From Oscillospiraceae bacterium (GTDB lineage: Bacteria; Bacillota; Clostridia; Oscillospirales; CAG-382): a stretch of 64,000 bases of DNA. Positions 4,025 to 47,055 of the stretch are shown one piece after another. Each line of letters starts with the position of its first letter. Positions within the stretch are counted from its first letter, which is position 1. The translations under genes and the position numbers were made by a program. A model generated the notes under the pieces. It had not been told where the DNA came from, made no database searches, and worked only from the letters and a program-made list of their open reading frames with translations. Location: the NCBI GenBank assembly GCA_015064625.1, contig SVRW01000001.1:132884-196883 (forward strand), written 5' to 3'.

Positions 4025-4607
4025 TTTTCAAAAAACTTCTTCTATGCTCGGGACACGGACCAAAAGATTTAATCGCCTCATAATGCATTTTAGTGCCATA
4101 TCCCTTATGCTTATCAAAATGATACTGCGGATATTTTTCATGCATTTTCATGCAATACCTGTCTCGACTTACTTTCGCCAAAATAGATGCCGCCGCAATA
4201 GACGGAGATAGTGAATCTCCCTTTATGACAGTTTTGCATGGAATTTCAAATCCTCTTGCAATATTACCATCAATGAGCGCATAGTCCGCTTTTACACCGA
4301 GATTTTGAACCGCTCGTCGCATAGCAAGCTGAGATGCGTTCAGAATATTGAGTTCTTCAATTTCATCGACTGTTGAAAAAGCTATGGAATACGCAATGGC
4401 TTCAGAAATAATAACGTCAAAAAGCTGTTCTCTTTTCTTTGCGGTTATTTTTTTTGAATCGTTCAAGCCTTCGATTACCAATCCAATTGGCAAAATAACA
4501 GCTGCAGCATAGACAGGACCCGCAAGAGGTCCTCTTCCCGCTTCATCAACACCGCATATAAGCTGAAAGCCTTCGTCAACAACGGATTTTTCTATACTGT
4601 AATCCAT
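4014..4607 (-). CDS. rnhB: ribonuclease HII
   Basis: The ORF is 197 aa and carries the motifs GVDEAGRGPLAGPV, NDSKK and LIDG...KGDS. Confidence 0.9.
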   Translation of the reverse strand: MDYSIEKSVVDEGFQLICGVDEAGRGPLAGPVYAAAVILPIGLVIEGLNDSKKITAKKREQLFDVIISEAIAYSIAFSTVDEIEELNILNASQLAMRRAVQNLGVKADYALIDGNIARGFEIPCKTVIKGDSLSPSIAAASILAKVSRDRYCMKMHEKYPQYHFDKHKGYGTKMHYEAIKSFGPCPEHRRSFLKNVL

Positions 4608-36559: not shown

Positions 36560-36636
36560 TGGCCTGCCCGACAGGATTCGAACCTGCGACCTTGAGAGTC
36601 GGAGTCTCATGCGCTATCCAGCTGTGCCACGGGCAG
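36560..36636 (-). tRNA. tRNA-Arg (anticodon CCG), CCA encoded
   Basis: The minus strand reads CTGCCCG-TG-GCAC-AGCTGGATA-GCGC-A-TGAGA-CTCCGAC-TCTCA-AGGTC-GCAGG-TTCGAAT-CCTGT-CGGGCAG-G-CCA. This folds as a cloverleaf with a 7-bp acceptor stem, a TTCGAAT T-loop and the anticodon loop CT-CCG-AC. Confidence 0.9.
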
Positions 36637-38773: not shown

Positions 38774-38807
38774 TTTAAAATACCTCGCCTTTTATACTAT
38801 CCTATAT

Positions 38808-38836
38808 ATTATACACATATAAATCAAAAAAGTCAA
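38808..38836 (-). promoter_or_regulatory. sigma-A promoter of the acyl-CoA synthetase gene (copy 1 of a duplicated promoter module)
   Basis: On the minus strand this reads TTGACT (38836-38831), a 17-nt spacer, then TATAAT (38813-38808). It ends about 35 nt upstream of the ATG at 38773. Confidence 0.65.
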
Positions 38837-38867
38837 TACTTTTGCGGTCAAAATGTATTTTATAAGC

Positions 38868-38913
38868 AAAAAAAGTGAATTCCCAAAGCAAATTAAACAC
38901 TTTGGAAATTCAC
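38868..38913 (-). terminator. intrinsic terminator closing the ORFan island
   Basis: The hairpin GTGAATTCCCAAAG-(11 nt)-CTTTGGAAATTCAC has a 14-bp stem with one mismatch. On the minus strand it is followed by TTTTTTT (38874-38868). Confidence 0.75.
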
Positions 38914-38963
38914 GTATATAAATTTATAAATAACAGAAAAAATAACCGTTATAGCGGTAAATA

Positions 38964-39137
38964 TGAAAAGAATTGCCGTTAAAGTGTTCAAAAAATGTTC
39001 GTCCACTGCAGCTTTTTTAAGTGTTTTATAAAGTTTTAGGACTTTGAAATTGAATTTTAGAAAATTTGACATTGGACGGAGCAGAAAACCAGCTTAAAAT
39101 CTCACTTTTTCAGTGGGGTCATTCCGTCCCCTGTCAG
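38964..39137. repeat. B-type repeat, copy 1 (174 bp)
   Basis: The repeat begins TGAAAAGAATTGCCG and ends CTTAAAATCTCACTTTTTCAGTGGGGTCATTCCGTCCCCTGTCAG. Its paralogue at 41078..41251 has identical length, conserved ends and a diverged middle. It contains the stop codon of ORF 39134..40027. Confidence 0.8.
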
Positions 39138-40027
39138 ATGTTTGCACCCCATGAATTCAAATGGAGATCACAGCCAAAATATCCGCATAGATTCATTGGA
39201 GCAAAAACCAACTCATCAAAATAATTTTTGATGGTTGCTTTTCTTTTTTCCTGACACCGATAAAGGGTTTGAACTTCTTTAAAAAGACGTTTTTGATTGT
39301 AAGTCTCACAACACTCTAACTTCTTTTTAATAATTAAATTTACTCTCTCCGACTCATGTTGTTTGCAAAAAGCTTCAATTAGAATCGCCCACTCTCCATA
39401 TGATAATGACCATTCTTCATTCAAGCGTTCTTCTATTTCGATAATGCTTGAATACTTTTCGCATAAATAATAAAATATCACTCTATCTAATAAGTCCATT
39501 CGAGAAATTTGTTCATTGTATTGATTAGCGTTTAACCCTAAAATCAAACTCTTTTTGTCATACATCGCCATAGAAACGAAAAAAGGAAATATCATTTCGT
39601 TAGAAAGAGATTTGATATTTCTAAAAAGATAAAAGGCATTTTTATATTTTTTTTGCATAAACAACGAAATTGCACGATCGTAAAGAATATAGTCATTCGA
39701 AAGCAGTGAATAACAGGAGGAATAAAACTCATACGATTCATTATACTTTCGTTCATTAAAAAACACCTCACCCAAATTCATAAAAACAATTGCATTTTTT
39801 TGAAAAATTGATGCCTTTAATAAGTATCTCTTACCTAATGATTCCGCACACATTTCTTTTCCGCTTTTTGTTACGATTCCGTGTTGATATAAGAAAAGAC
39901 CTAAATTATTATAAGTTTGAAAGCATGGATTGGTGTTTTTATTGAGATAAAATAATTCTTGAGCAGTTTCAAATTCACCATTCAATAGCGCGCTCATTGC
40001 ACGCTTGTTTAATATTTCAGAATTCAA
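39134..40027 (-). CDS. hypothetical protein with TPR-like helical repeats
   Basis: The ORF is 297 aa. It starts at a TTG preceded by AAGGTAAACCA. Repeated amphipathic helix pairs (e.g. AIVFMNLGEVFFNERKYNESYEFYSSCY) suggest TPR-like repeats. I recognise no family. Confidence 0.55.
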   Translation of the reverse strand: MNSEILNKRAMSALLNGEFETAQELFYLNKNTNPCFQTYNNLGLFLYQHGIVTKSGKEMCAESLGKRYLLKASIFQKNAIVFMNLGEVFFNERKYNESYEFYSSCYSLLSNDYILYDRAISLFMQKKYKNAFYLFRNIKSLSNEMIFPFFVSMAMYDKKSLILGLNANQYNEQISRMDLLDRVIFYYLCEKYSSIIEIEERLNEEWSLSYGEWAILIEAFCKQHESERVNLIIKKKLECCETYNQKRLFKEVQTLYRCQEKRKATIKNYFDELVFAPMNLCGYFGCDLHLNSWGANI

Positions 40028-40114
40028 TGGTTTACCTTGATATTTTATTTTAAAAATTTAATATATTTCGGAATATTCAAAATATAGATATTTCATTAAA
40101 TGACAGGGCATAAA

Positions 40115-40291
40115 TGACAGAGGACGGTTCTGTGTCCGAAACTGAATTGTCCGAAAGTGTATTTATAAACGGCTTAAACTCGCGTTTATAGCAATTTAGA
40201 ACATGTTTTCAAACAACAGTTCGTCCACTGAATTTGCTATTCTTTTGTGAATTTTATGAGTTGAAATCTGACAGAGAACCGTCCCCTGTCA
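40115..40291. mobile_element. A-type element, copy 1: 177 bp with 22-bp terminal inverted repeats (MITE-like or invertible-switch-like)
   Basis: The left IR is TGACAGAGGACGGTTCTGTGTC (40115-40136). The right IR is GACAGAGAACCGTCCCCTGTCA (40270-40291). They are complementary at 20/22 positions. This copy differs at 9/177 positions from the copy at 40880..41056. It contains TTGAAA-N16-TGcTATAAA on the minus strand (40212-40185). Confidence 0.75.
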
Positions 40292-40366
40292 GATGGAGAT
40301 GACAGAGAACCGTCCCCTGTCAGATGGAGAGAACCGTCCCCTGTCAGATGGAGTCCCCTGTCAGAT
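40269..40366. repeat. nested, progressively 5'-truncated tandem repeats of the right-IR motif
   Basis: The array reads TGACAGAGAACCGTCCCCTGTCAGATGGAG (40269-40298), a, the same 30-mer (40300-40329), AGAACCGTCCCCTGTCAGATGGAG (40330-40353), then TCCCCTGTCAGAT (40354-40366). The TCCCCTGTCAGAT cores start at 40282, 40313, 40337 and 40354, giving spacings of 31, 24 and 17 nt. Confidence 0.9.
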
Positions 40367-40406
40367 TTGATAGGAGCACATATTCCTATAGCAGACCGGT
40401 GATTAC

Positions 40407-40802
40407 TCATCTTCCAAGGTTTAAATATCTTGCAATTTTAAAAACACTTTTGTAAAGAAAAATATCAAACGTGGGACCACTCGAGGAGAATTTGTGTCCG
40501 TTGTCGCCAATTAAATCGGCGTAATAATATCTTTCTGTAGTAGAGCGCTTTATTTCAAAACTATAACCATTGTTTTCGATGTAGTTGAGTAAATCTATTT
40601 CCGTTGCCAACCTGCTTCCTTTTGCAGAAACTTTTTGGTCTAATTCAGTAAATTTGCCATATTCAGGGTCATCTATTCCACCAATTATATAATTTTTTCC
40701 ATTGTAAAAATACACGCACCCAGTGTAACAGAGATGTTCATCTTCACCGAAGTTAAACCCGGCTTTTCGTAATTTTTCCATTGTGAATATACTTAAATAC
40801 AT
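40407..40802 (-). CDS. hypothetical protein (ORFan, soluble)
   Basis: The ORF is 131 aa. Its ATG is preceded by GAGGAA at 8-nt spacing. I recognise no motif. Confidence 0.55.
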   Translation of the reverse strand: MYLSIFTMEKLRKAGFNFGEDEHLCYTGCVYFYNGKNYIIGGIDDPEYGKFTELDQKVSAKGSRLATEIDLLNYIENNGYSFEIKRSTTERYYYADLIGDNGHKFSSSGPTFDIFLYKSVFKIARYLNLGR

Positions 40803-40879
40803 ACGTGCTTTTCCTCAAATTTTTAATATCAATCTAACGGGTCCTTTATGTTTTCCTGTGATAAAGTTTCCGGGTCAAA

Positions 40880-41056
40880 TGACAGGGGACGGTTCTGTGT
40901 CTGAAACTGAATTGTCCGAAAGTGTATTTATAAACAGCTCAAACTCGCTTTTAAAGCAATTTAGAACATATTTTCAAACAACAGTTCGTCCCCTGAATTT
41001 GCTATTCTTTTGTTAATTTTATGAGTTGAAATCTGACAGAGAACCGTCCCCTGTCA
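40880..41056. mobile_element. A-type element, copy 2: 177 bp with 22-bp terminal inverted repeats
   Basis: The left IR is TGACAGGGGACGGTTCTGTGTC (40880-40901). The right IR is GACAGAGAACCGTCCCCTGTCA (41035-41056). They are complementary at 21/22 positions. The internal motif TTGAAA-N16-TGcTTTAAA lies on the minus strand (40977-40950). Confidence 0.75.
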
Positions 41057-41077
41057 GAGCGTTCATGAGTTGAAATC

Positions 41078-41251
41078 TGAAAAGAATTGCCGCAATAGTC
41101 GGGGAAAAAATGTCCCCAACTATCGCGTTTTCATCTATTTTCCGTCTTTTTGAAAATGTGAAATCAATTTTGGCAAAATCCAACGCACAGAGAGACAAAT
41201 TATCGGCTTAAAACCTCACTTTTTCAGCGGTTTCGGACCGTCCCCTGTCAG
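41078..41251. repeat. B-type repeat, copy 2 (174 bp)
   Basis: The repeat begins TGAAAAGAATTGCCG and ends CTTAAAACCTCACTTTTTCAGCGGTTTCGGACCGTCCCCTGTCAG. It lies 11 nt downstream of the stop of ORF 41263..41538. Confidence 0.8.
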
Positions 41252-41262
41252 CTGGGTCACTG

Positions 41263-41538
41263 TCAAAACGGTAAAAGATGATTTCCTGATATAATAGTAC
41301 ATGTTAACCAAATAAAGCTAAAAATGTACGCGCCATCAATCCAATTTAGAGAAGCACAAGCCACAGTAAACAGTAGAGAAACGGTTCCTATGATAGCGTT
41401 TGTTATATACATTTTCTTGTTTTTACGCAATCTTTCTGTTAAATTATATTTTGGATCTAAATACTTGCGAAATAATATTAAGAAGCCTATGCATGCAGCT
41501 CCAAAAATGTATTCGCACTTTAAGAAATCGTTGAGCAT
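41263..41538 (-). CDS. hypothetical small membrane protein (3 TM)
   Basis: The ORF is 91 aa with three hydrophobic helices and a weak RBS (AGGT, 8 nt). I recognise no family. Confidence 0.45.
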   Translation of the reverse strand: MLNDFLKCEYIFGAACIGFLILFRKYLDPKYNLTERLRKNKKMYITNAIIGTVSLLFTVACASLNWIDGAYIFSFIWLTCTIISGNHLLPF

Positions 41539-41578
41539 GTAAAATTACCTGTTTTCCTCAAAGAACAATATATAATCA

Positions 41579-41607
41579 GGGAGACATGGGACGGTTCTAT
41601 GTCTCCC
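41579..41607. repeat. stand-alone hairpin carrying the island's conserved 11-nt loop
   Basis: The hairpin is GGGAGACAT-GGGACGGTTCT-ATGTCTCCC, with a perfect 9-bp stem. Its loop is the reverse complement of the AGAACCGTCCC loop in the A-element right IRs. Confidence 0.85.
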
Positions 41608-41653
41608 TTCCCTGCATGAAGATACTCCTTTAACCACCTTGAATATGAATAAA

Positions 41654-42088
41654 TTATTTTTCAACTTCCTTTAAACTTGAAACAAAAAGTTCACCGTAAT
41701 TGTTCTTTGAGAAGATTAACTCATAAGGAATTTCATTTATTTCAAATTCAAAATATATTTCTTCAAGCTCCAAAACAAAACTTTCTATTGTTTCGGGAGC
41801 TTTTGCCCAAAATGAATCGTACGTCCTTTCCAAAAATCCTTTGTCACTGTTTGGCTTGTAAGAGATTGTATCGTAAAATTCAACAAAAAAATTATTACCA
41901 TGCTTATTGATTATTTCAGCGTTGGATTTTATATATTCTTCAGCTTTTATCTGATAAACTTCAAGATATTCTCTCTCTTTTGTCATTATTTCTGAACTTC
42001 TGTTCACTGTGAATATAACGAACGCACTCATTATTCCAAACGCCAAAACGCATGCAACTACAAAAATGATAACTTTCTTATTTTTCAT
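41654..42088 (-). CDS. hypothetical membrane-anchored protein
   Basis: The ORF is 144 aa. It has an N-terminal signal-anchor (VIIFVVACVLAFGIMSAFVIF) and a good RBS (AGGTAGTG). I recognise no family. Confidence 0.55.
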   Translation of the reverse strand: MKNKKVIIFVVACVLAFGIMSAFVIFTVNRSSEIMTKEREYLEVYQIKAEEYIKSNAEIINKHGNNFFVEFYDTISYKPNSDKGFLERTYDSFWAKAPETIESFVLELEEIYFEFEINEIPYELIFSKNNYGELFVSSLKEVEK

Positions 42089-42248
42089 AATATCACTACC
42101 TTTCTTAATTAGGGAGATAAAGAAGACGGTCGTCTTTTTCCTTAATCACTGACTTTTTAAATCACTGTTTTAAACATGATTATTTAAGCTATTAATATCC
42201 TTGTAATACGATTCAGTCATCTTATTGATACACCTTTGTTACAAATAC

Positions 42249-42277
42249 ATTATACTCGAACAAATCAAAAAAGTCAA
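42249..42277 (-). promoter_or_regulatory. sigma-A promoter at the head of the ORFan island (copy 2 of the duplicated promoter module)
   Basis: On the minus strand this reads TTGACT (42277-42272), a 17-nt spacer, then TATAAT (42254-42249). It shares a 23-nt identical block, AAATCAAAAAAGTCAATACTTTG on the plus strand, with 38821-38843. Confidence 0.65.
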
Positions 42278-42308
42278 TACTTTGGCAGTTAAATACACTT
42301 TACATAAA

Positions 42309-46693: not shown

Positions 46694-47055
46694 GTGAAGA
46701 ATGACTGCGTCTGTAAGCCGGGTTCTGTCTTAAGCGGTCATCTATCTTGGACTTACGTTACCGCAAGCCTCTTTGCCACCCAGGAGCTTGCCGAGCAAGC
46801 AATAACGCTCCCATACGGTGTTGCTCCGGATAGGGTTTACATGGCCGCACAGTCTCCTGTGCGCCGGTAGGCTCTTACCCTGCCTTTCCATCCTTACCCC
46901 GTTAAAACGAGGCGGTTTATTTCTGTTGCACTAGCCCTAAAGTCGCCTTCGGCGGACGTTATCCGTTATCCTGCTCTATGGAGCCCGGACTTTCCTCACT
47001 CCGTGACCTTTCGGTATGACGGGGCGCAACCGCTCGGCGCAGTCGGCTACTTCAC
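46694..47055 (-). ncRNA. rnpB: RNase P RNA (bacterial, apparently class A)
   Basis: This is a GC-rich block in AT-rich surroundings. The minus strand contains GAGGAAAGTCCGGGCTCCATAGAGCAGG (P4 5' strand region, plus-strand 46981-46997) and ACAGAACCCGGCTTA (46714-46728). The P1 pairing is GTGAAGTAGCCGACTGCG ... CGCAGTCATTCTTCAC. Confidence 0.9.

Follow-up and report, generated by a model that had tools for sequence, protein, structure and literature searches.

Hairpins with a conserved 11-nt loop in a Clostridial genome as probable ends and gene-less derivatives of a RAYT/TIRYT-type mobile element

The HUH enzymes of IS608 and ISDra2 and the TnpA_REP of Escherichia coli work on single-stranded DNA. 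In IS608 the hairpins of the two ends are read on one and the same strand, and a guide tetranucleotide located at the foot of the hairpin determines where cleavage takes place; the TnpA proteins of the IS200/IS605 group of insertion sequences (IS) are of about 130-150 aa and are often found with TnpB. The classical REP-associated tyrosine transposases (RAYTs) are typically single-copy, vertically inherited and domesticated, with hundreds of repeats dispersed over the genome that encodes them, and the repetitive extragenic palindromic (REP) elements of E. coli are known as mRNA stabilisers. A classical REP carries a GTAG or GTGG head outside a GC-rich stem, which is closed by a 2-5-nt loop or else is long and bulged (PMC6006769). 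The TIRYT/TIRtron class (Di Nocera et al. 2013, PMC3733652), which Quentin et al. 2018 (PMC6006769) equate with their TnpA_Y1 subclass 2.1, is made up of RAYT-like genes that lie, at a fixed distance, between inverted repeats with the common motif GGGGWSAS; some of these repeats are self-complementary and are found in dimers or clusters (PMC3733652). The proteins of subclass 2.1 are long and carry a C-terminal helix-turn-helix (HTH), and REP-like structures were not found beside their genes by Quentin et al. (PMC6006769). Firmicutes examples of the repeats are not discussed in the main text of either paper, and Clostridia are unmentioned in the main text of PMC3733652. Here we describe a hairpin with the conserved 11-nt loop GGGACGGTTCT from a 64,000-nt stretch of contig SVRW01000001.1 of an Oscillospiraceae bacterium (this whole stretch is called the window), where it had been noticed in a preliminary description made from the letters alone, and we relate it to a Y1 transposase of Clostridia.

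A covarying hairpin in the window and in other genomes

Hairpins with this loop were found in seven copies, all of them between 40109 and 41610, with none in the rest of the window; half-motifs at 39124 and 41238 are additional to the seven. Six of the 11-mers are exact and one has a single mismatch, against 0.23 expected in the window, and the 14-mer CCGTCCCCTGTCAG occurs exactly six times (39124, 40279, 40310, 40334, 41044 and 41238), where about 0.06 matches are expected by chance even if 2 mismatches are allowed. All copies of both words are confined to 39.1-41.6 kb, so that the 14-mer is indeed absent elsewhere in the 64 kb, as had been described; of the six positions given for it in the preliminary description five were exact, and 41043 is really 41044. 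The loop is carried by two stem types. Type one, ATCTGACAG/CTGTCAGAT, closes the right ends of two gene-less doublets, A1 (9 bp) and A2 (8 bp), and type two, GGGAGACAT/ATGTCTCCC, closes a solo hairpin (9 bp; coordinates in Table 1). Five of the 9 stem positions differ between the two types and the other arm compensates each of them, which confirmed at all three sites the common loop and the compensated stems that had been reported. Folded as single-stranded DNA, the strong copies gave z = -4.1 to -4.9 against shuffled sequences; the left-end copies of A1 and A2 folded no better than shuffles (z = +0.4 and -0.5), in keeping with the weak stems already ascribed to them.

A covariance model trained solely on hairpins of other metagenomes, from loci fetched by protein similarity, was then run on the window. 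It gave seven matches with E <= 0.0025, all of them at 40109-41610 and none elsewhere in the 64 kb. The two B repeats, which had been said to end in a half-motif, do end in the exact 14-mer and have just the 3' half of the motif (covariance model E ~5); this terminal half-motif is the sole part shared by the A and B repeats. The degenerate copy proposed at 42113-42140 did not hold, as the model gives E > 10 for it; AAGACGGTCGTCTTTTT at this place, in the ORF144 leader (ORF, open reading frame), forms a small hairpin of its own with a T-run after it. The statement that the motif recurs in every intergenic gap of the island stood for three gaps, which have real hairpins, and fell for one, which has just the half-motif at the ORF297 end.

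Beyond the window, one genome of each species was scanned with the pattern GACANGGGACGGTTCTNTGTC, and the motif was found in at least 120 genome stretches, nearly all of them from Clostridia metagenome-assembled genomes (MAGs) of rumen, gut and digesters, and this genome-wide search, which the preliminary description had advised, established that the motif is not local. Among the stretches listed the carriers were Lachnospiraceae, Oscillospiraceae, Acutalibacteraceae, Clostridiaceae, Syntrophomonadaceae and Peptococcaceae, and several contigs of one MAG share the motif. Three outer stem positions lie outside the searched pattern and were free to vary. In 180 distinct copies they were Watson-Crick paired in 85%, 88% and 59%, as compared to 54%, 47% and 27% after shuffling, and all three were paired together in 50% of the copies against 11.7 +/- 2.2% in shuffled ones (maximum 19% in 1,000 shuffles). 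The genome copies hold 14 distinct Watson-Crick outer triplets, which disposes of the possibility raised beforehand that there is no stem covariation beyond the copies of the window; the outer stem GGA/TCC, that of the solo hairpin, is the commonest in other genomes. Copies within one genome tend to share their stem, and the stem differs between genomes, as would be expected if a master copy had been amplified locally.

A second test was made with 150 instances which were picked by loop sequence alone from the protein-fetched loci and left unfiltered, truncated copies included. Pairing was observed in 71% of cells, compared with 52.6 +/- 1.1% after shuffling, and the covariation score was 0.532 against 0.253 +/- 0.014, a value reached by 0 of 500 shuffles; when the 3' partner was slid by 1-3 columns the score was at most 0.22. 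Changes on both sides were noticed in 8 of 8 stem pairs, and the inner stem variants of these loci (GACAG, CACAA, GACGAG, AGCAGG, CCCAAG, GTCAAG and others) always have a matching 3' arm. This showed that the hairpin is indeed a real, covarying structure, and it supports beyond the window the selection on a folded single strand that had been proposed from the window copies. A lone asymmetry, G-T (47) versus A-C (5), was noticed at the position that closes the loop; the 5' G there hardly varies and may be part of the motif. As regards arrangement, neighbouring inverted copies in the genome loci were '+ then -' in 44 cases and '- then +' in none, with gaps of 7-148 nt, and 25 tandem pairs were observed; 63% of hairpin midpoints lie outside long ORFs, although long ORFs make up 85% of the bases.

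The Y1 protein beside the hairpins and the complete element

The ORFs of the 120 listed loci were clustered to find recurrent neighbours. The only recurrent neighbour of mobile-element type was a Y1_Tnp protein of about 250 aa (Pfam Y1_Tnp, E = 1e-10 to 1e-16), and no TnpB-like recurrent neighbour was present among these ORFs. Each of the four complete Y1 genes has a hairpin on both sides, so that the search for a co-occurring RAYT or TnpA-Y1 gene, suggested earlier, indeed found a RAYT-like Y1 gene between hairpins; fragments of the Y1 gene adjoin hairpins in five more loci. The four full proteins scored 71.6-79.1 bits with NCBIfam NF047646 (REP-associated tyrosine transposase), narrowly missing its cutoff of 80. 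The HUH motif (H60, H62) and Y119 (RYIHQNP) are invariant. The sole sequence match in PDB was 4ER8, E. coli TnpA_REP, and with the AlphaFold model (pLDDT 87.8) the best fold match was again 4ER8 (E = 5e-8, TM 0.74 on target), which ranked ahead of the ISDra2 and IS608 TnpA structures. The C-terminal extension of about 110 aa is helical, and its residues 190-249 are confident in the model. The family comprises at least 7,435 clusters at 90% identity (E <= 1e-10), mostly from gut, rumen and digester Clostridia, and its members are called 'transposase' where they are named, and once 'REP element-mobilizing transposase RayT'. A full-text literature search with the 11-mer in either orientation returned unrelated primers only, and one for RAYT together with Clostridia or Firmicutes did not find a relevant paper. 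A plasmid search with the A element gave no match, and a protein search of plasmids gave distant 'transposase' matches only. The 4416-bp contig of locus L052 terminates within a copy of the Y1 gene at both ends (5-91 and 4311-4415), which suggests that this genome holds several copies of the gene and that the assembly breaks at them.

As an independent test set, 80 metagenome loci were fetched by protein similarity alone (45-63% identity). The source genome of the window did not figure among the fetched loci. The loop core of 7 nt (GGGACGG or CCGTCCC) was found within 250 nt of the gene in 75 of the 80 loci, and this bears out the first candidate of the preliminary description, an element of REP/REPIN type with a Y1 (RAYT/IS200-like) transposase. 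Upstream flanks carried GGGACGG on the coding strand in 63 of 77 cases, at a median of 65 nt and mostly 58-66 nt from the ATG, and downstream flanks carried the inverted copy in 61 of 75, mostly 12-35 nt past the stop codon. The density of the core per kb was 4.9 beside the gene, 0.27 at more than 600 nt from it and 0.07 within it. Loop variants were also distributed along the protein tree: GGGACGGGGTT was present in 11 of 11 members of one protein clade, GGGACGGTGGTT in three adjacent leaves of the tree and GGGACGGTTCAT in two small groups. Such tracking is predicted if the protein reads the loop directly.

The same element and the same enzyme would also be compatible with the 11-mer being a binding site in duplex DNA, a true terminal inverted repeat (TIR) that is read by an HTH-like C-terminal domain, the palindrome serving at most for cruciform extrusion. 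The helical C-terminal extension, which gave weak Pfam matches to HTH_58 and HTH_38 (E = 0.03-0.06; Bac_DnaA_C, HTH_23 and HTH_28 were not matched), speaks for this, as does the description of the published TIRYT class as TIR-associated and not structure-associated (PMC3733652, PMC6006769), and the left ends of A1 and A2 keep an exact or near-exact 11-mer in spite of poor stems. However, the many compensatory stem types would have no role in plain duplex binding, and the catalytic domain of the HUH class acts on single strands; we therefore regard the duplex site as unlikely.

Upstream regions aligned without reference to the motif gave the consensus 5' arm, GGGGACGGTTCT, 3' arm, TTGACA, 17 nt, TGnTATAAT, GAGGTG, ATG, which means that the foot of the left hairpin runs directly into the -35 box. 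Two loci, L192 (429-1263) and L195 (1928-2762), share an 835-bp hairpin-gene-hairpin unit at 99.5% identity between unrelated flanks, and since the unit stands in unrelated contexts, the whole of it appears to move. The borders of the unit are TG plus the left hairpin and the right hairpin plus CA, so that its ends are 2 nt outside the hairpin feet, and no target duplication was noticed at this pair. The complete element, as found in other genomes, is of about 0.85-0.9 kb, and comprises the left hairpin, the promoter, the Y1 HUH transposase of about 250 aa with its helical C-terminal domain, and the inverted right hairpin. Taken together, the covariation, the hairpins flanking the Y1 gene and the shared unit make it probable that the hairpins come from a small mobile element of RAYT/TIRYT type, as its ends, as stray single copies and as derivatives without the gene.

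The place of the promoter also bears on whether the hairpins are instead RNA elements, that is terminators, stabilisers or processing sites, for which the link to the transposase is secondary. Their mostly intergenic position, the stabilisation of mRNA by E. coli REPs and the downstream copy shortly past the transposase stop codon would all suit such a role. But the upstream copy, which is conserved, is placed ahead of the -35 box or underneath it and hence is not in the transposase mRNA, the hairpins of the window are found in both orientations relative to the minus-strand island genes, and no T-run follows them, the terminator scan catching only a tandem-array artefact. A search of 39-42 kb with Rfam found nothing at the gathering score and only chance-level miRNA and snoRNA matches at E <= 10, so that no relevant family emerged even at that threshold. 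We consider an RNA role very improbable, and the RNA processing or stability element that the preliminary description had offered as a candidate is disfavoured by the upstream copy.

Borders of the kind TG...CA, together with the 25-nt inverted ends of A1 and A2 (88-92% identity), could suggest that the A elements are miniature inverted-repeat transposable elements (MITEs) of a DDE-type IS, with ordinary TIRs. However, no recurrent DDE transposase was found beside the motif in the 120 listed and the 80 protein-fetched loci, where the recurrent gene is the Y1 HUH gene; no target-site duplication was seen, and neither solo hairpins nor stem covariation are expected of DDE ends. A DDE origin thus seems most unlikely.

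Features of the window and the island around them

The elements of the window (Table 1) are non-autonomous copies or relics of the mobile element. For the window as such this is an ordinary finding, a cluster of copies that are not autonomous, within a small accessory island.

Table 1. Hairpins and repeats of the window, with covariance-model scores and single-strand folds
Feature	Position	Strand	Description
B1 repeat	38959..39140	+	About 165 nt of unrelated sequence, ends in CCGTCCCCTGTCAG (39124-39137); overlaps the ORF297 stop codon; 68.8% identity to B2 over 186 columns; covariance model E ~5
Truncated copy of the A1 left terminus	40100..40108	+	ATGACAGGG, just outside A1; read from sequence
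A1 left-end hairpin	40109..40143 (core 40116-40136)	+	Weak, 4-bp stem; loop AGGACGGTTCT with 1 mismatch; 17.3 bits, E = 0.0017; fold no better than shuffles
A1, gene-less doublet of 182 nt, REPIN/MITE-like	40112..40293	+	Left hairpin loop GGGACGG on + strand, right hairpin inverted; 25-nt inverted ends; direct repeat of A2 at 95% identity; polarity '+ then -', as around transposase genes and in 44/44 inverted doublets elsewhere
A1 right-end hairpin	40263..40297	-	ATCTGACAG / loop / CTGTCAGAT, 9-bp stem 40266-40294; 26.5 bits, E = 7e-7; DNA fold -8 kcal/mol, z = -4.1
Stutter array, outer side of A1 right end	40295..40366	-	Read from sequence; three copies with common 3' end CTGTCAGAT (+ strand), 5'-shortened to 28, 21 and 14 nt, GGA joints; partial covariance-model matches 40301-40321 (22.1 bits) and 40328-40342 (16.8 bits); like pattern in other genomes
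A2 left-end hairpin	40874..40908	+	Exact loop, weak stem (G-G closing position); 26.1 bits, E = 1e-6; fold no better than shuffles
A2, second gene-less doublet	40877..41058	+	95% identity to A1; as single-stranded DNA both ends pair into one long stem, z = -4.6
A2 right-end hairpin	41028..41062	-	8-bp stem 41032-41058; 28.9 bits, E = 1e-7
Partial repeat of 19 nt preceding the A2 right hairpin	41062..41080	+	Cut within the 5' arm (TTCATGAGTTGAAATCTGA); repeat family D7
B2 repeat	41073..41254	+	Same half-motif as B1 (41238-41251); strong minus-strand terminator 41127-41091 inside
Solo hairpin, second stem type	41576..41610	+	GGGAGACAT / GGGACGGTTCT / ATGTCTCCC, 41579-41607; 28.1 bits, E = 2e-7; DNA fold -9.8 kcal/mol, z = -4.2

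Truncated self-copies on the outer side of the element, here called stutter arrays, precede about 10% of full hairpins (30/317). They end variably in the loop or in the 3' arm, with joints of 0-5 nt, are not nested insertions, and were noticed at 40295-40366, 40100-40108 and 41062-41080 of the window as well as at L121:~1020-1064, L029:~1690-1750, L014 and L024.

The hairpins lie in a 3.4-kb island which is bracketed by a 49-nt direct repeat (38804-38852 and 42245-42293, 84% identical). Each copy of this repeat is a near-consensus minus-strand promoter (TTGACT, 17 nt, TATAAT; 11/12 positions), one copy upstream of an AMP-binding/acyl-CoA synthetase gene and the other upstream of the four small island ORFs, which gives the impression that the island came in along with the resident promoter, or duplicated it. 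One island ORF encodes a TPR protein and the remaining three match no Pfam or NCBIfam family. Large RHS/YD-repeat genes (polymorphic toxin-like) adjoin hairpins in 5 loci (L004, L070, L117, L119 and L120) among the 120 listed, and by analogy the island ORFs of the window might perhaps be a similar accessory or immunity-type cluster. Two strong hairpins resembling intrinsic terminators were noticed on the minus strand, one at 41091-41127 (in B2, downstream of ORF91) and one at 38875-38913 (downstream of the island). Farther off, a tRNA-Arg(CCG) gene (36560-36636, minus strand) lies about 2 kb from the island and the RNase P RNA (46698-47045, minus strand) about 4.5 kb away on the opposite side; no link of either to the hairpins was found.

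Small same-strand ORFs with hairpin elements between them, inside a bracketing direct repeat, resemble a cassette array, and one could argue that a recombinase assembled the island and that the hairpins are its folded sites, attC-like or Xer-like. This we find barely credible. No integrase or recombinase gene was noticed near the motif in any of the locus sets, and the bracketing repeat is a duplicated promoter. Moreover, in attC sites the conserved boxes are kept at the stem base, whereas in the hairpins described here conservation is in the loop and the stem varies.

Proposed mechanism and comparison with known systems

The mechanism proposed for the mobile element is modelled on the HUH Y1 enzymes of IS608 and ISDra2 and on E. 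coli TnpA_REP (PMC3333891, PMC3479197). As with IS200/IS605 and E. coli TnpA_REP, single-stranded DNA, such as that exposed at replication forks, is probably where the enzyme binds the hairpin. The 11-nt loop would be the main part that it reads, with the stem as a mere scaffold, and the nick would fall near the hairpin foot, made by Tyr119 with the HUH-bound metal. The -35 box and the upstream hairpin overlap, and therefore the promoter of the enzyme could be throttled when this hairpin is bound or extruded, which would limit the expression of the enzyme. A nick inside the loop, as could be drawn from the breakpoints of the B repeats and the stutter arrays, was considered and given a low probability, since the sole pair of loci that defines the ends has them 2 nt outside the hairpins. 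We also entertain, tentatively and with more doubt than confidence, that this Clostridial Y1 clade may recognise its DNA via the 11-nt loop in the manner of rolling-circle Rep, and that the stutter arrays may be footprints of strand transfer, with existing ends as preferred insertion sites. Such a preference, if true, would explain why seven copies are piled up in 1.5 kb, and recognition of the loop, if true, would be a distinct mode within Y1 transposases, unlike the reading of foot or head by IS608 and E. coli TnpA_REP.

Several points weigh against assigning the hairpins of the window to such an element. There is no transposase gene in the 64-kb window, so that its copies would need a transposase supplied in trans from elsewhere in the genome, or else are relics, and any mobility left to them would depend on such a gene. 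The seven copies are crowded in 1.5 kb and the other 62 kb are without any, which is unlike the dispersed classical REPs. The four metagenome contigs with this locus are identical to the window, and therefore offer no insertion polymorphism and no empty site for its elements; the contig itself is identical to JGI 3300031555 Ga0318466_10003714. Single-strand binding, loop reading and the nick site are all drawn by analogy from other enzymes, and no biochemically characterised member of the family was found in the literature. In the stem proper there is no asymmetry between wobble and A-C pairs that would point to the active strand. Furthermore, as the ends are inverted, one strand shows the GGGACGGTTCT loop at just one end, and this one-ended display does not agree with IS608, where a single strand serves for the reading of both ends.

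The interest of this large and abundant Y1 family of Clostridia lies in its size and in its clean substrate of conserved loop and variable stem. A DNA substrate of 27-35 nt, together with natural loop variants matched to protein clades, allows tests of how Y1 HUH proteins read DNA, and sequence-specific single-strand HUH domains are useful as tags for coupling DNA to protein. The hairpins break metagenome assemblies and may be mistaken for RNA motifs or for DDE-type MITEs. The observations also correct the published view, in which the TIRs of TIRYT are called unstructured and subclass 2.1 is without REP-like structures, since here they are covarying hairpins.

Among known systems, the Rep origins of circoviruses and geminiviruses are stem-loops with a nonanucleotide, and with these there is a functional analogy only: a conserved loop, a free stem and an HUH nuclease. 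The enzymes belong to different HUH branches (Rep versus Y1 transposase), and unlike at the Rep origins no sign of a loop nick was noticed here, the unit borders being outside the hairpin feet. With IS200/IS605 (IS608, ISDra2) the element shares the Y1 HUH fold, the catalytic motifs, subterminal end hairpins and the lack of target duplication. However, in contrast to IS608 its ends are inverted, the conserved part is the loop and no conserved foot sequence was seen, and the protein is about 100 aa longer than TnpA. The likeness to REP, BIME and REPIN repeats with RAYT in Enterobacteria and Pseudomonas is one of layout, as there too a Y1 HUH gene stands between inverted short palindromic repeats which occur as intergenic singles, inverted doublets and clusters, and E. 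coli TnpA_REP was the best match in both sequence and fold. But nothing is conserved outside the stem, the conserved part is an 11-nt loop, and the stems are variable and not GC-rich; lacking a GTAG head and having a long conserved loop, the repeat fails the classical definition of a REP. The protein also stays just below the NF047646 cutoff and, unlike classical RAYTs, the transposase unit here appears to be mobile, and in at least one assembly it seems to be present in several copies.

The closest published class is thus TIRYT/TIRtron, and we file the element as its Clostridial member. As in TIRYT, the RAYT-like Y1 protein is longer than classical RAYTs and has a C-terminal extension, which is helical here and may be HTH-like, the gene lies between inverted repeats at a fixed distance, and the repeats form moderately abundant families in dimers and clusters (the inverted doublets and tandem pairs counted above). 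Against the shared GGGGWSAS, the loop GGGGACGG agrees in 7/8 positions and its variants GGGGACAG in 8/8. The preliminary description had conceded that the motif might simply be the inverted repeat of a known IS family; the hairpins do correspond to the TIRs of TIRYT/TIRtron, but that class is itself a Y1-transposase explanation, and therefore the interpretation stands. The published examples come mainly from Proteobacteria and Acidobacteria, and those described here from Clostridia. The published repeats had been presented as TIRs "rather than typical secondary structures", whereas the repeat described here forms a covarying hairpin, whose loop contains the G-rich motif and whose 3' foot is fused with the -35 box. 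What is new, in a kind of element that is already known, is a TIR that folds into a covarying hairpin and holds the conserved motif in its loop, with the promoter joined to the hairpin foot.

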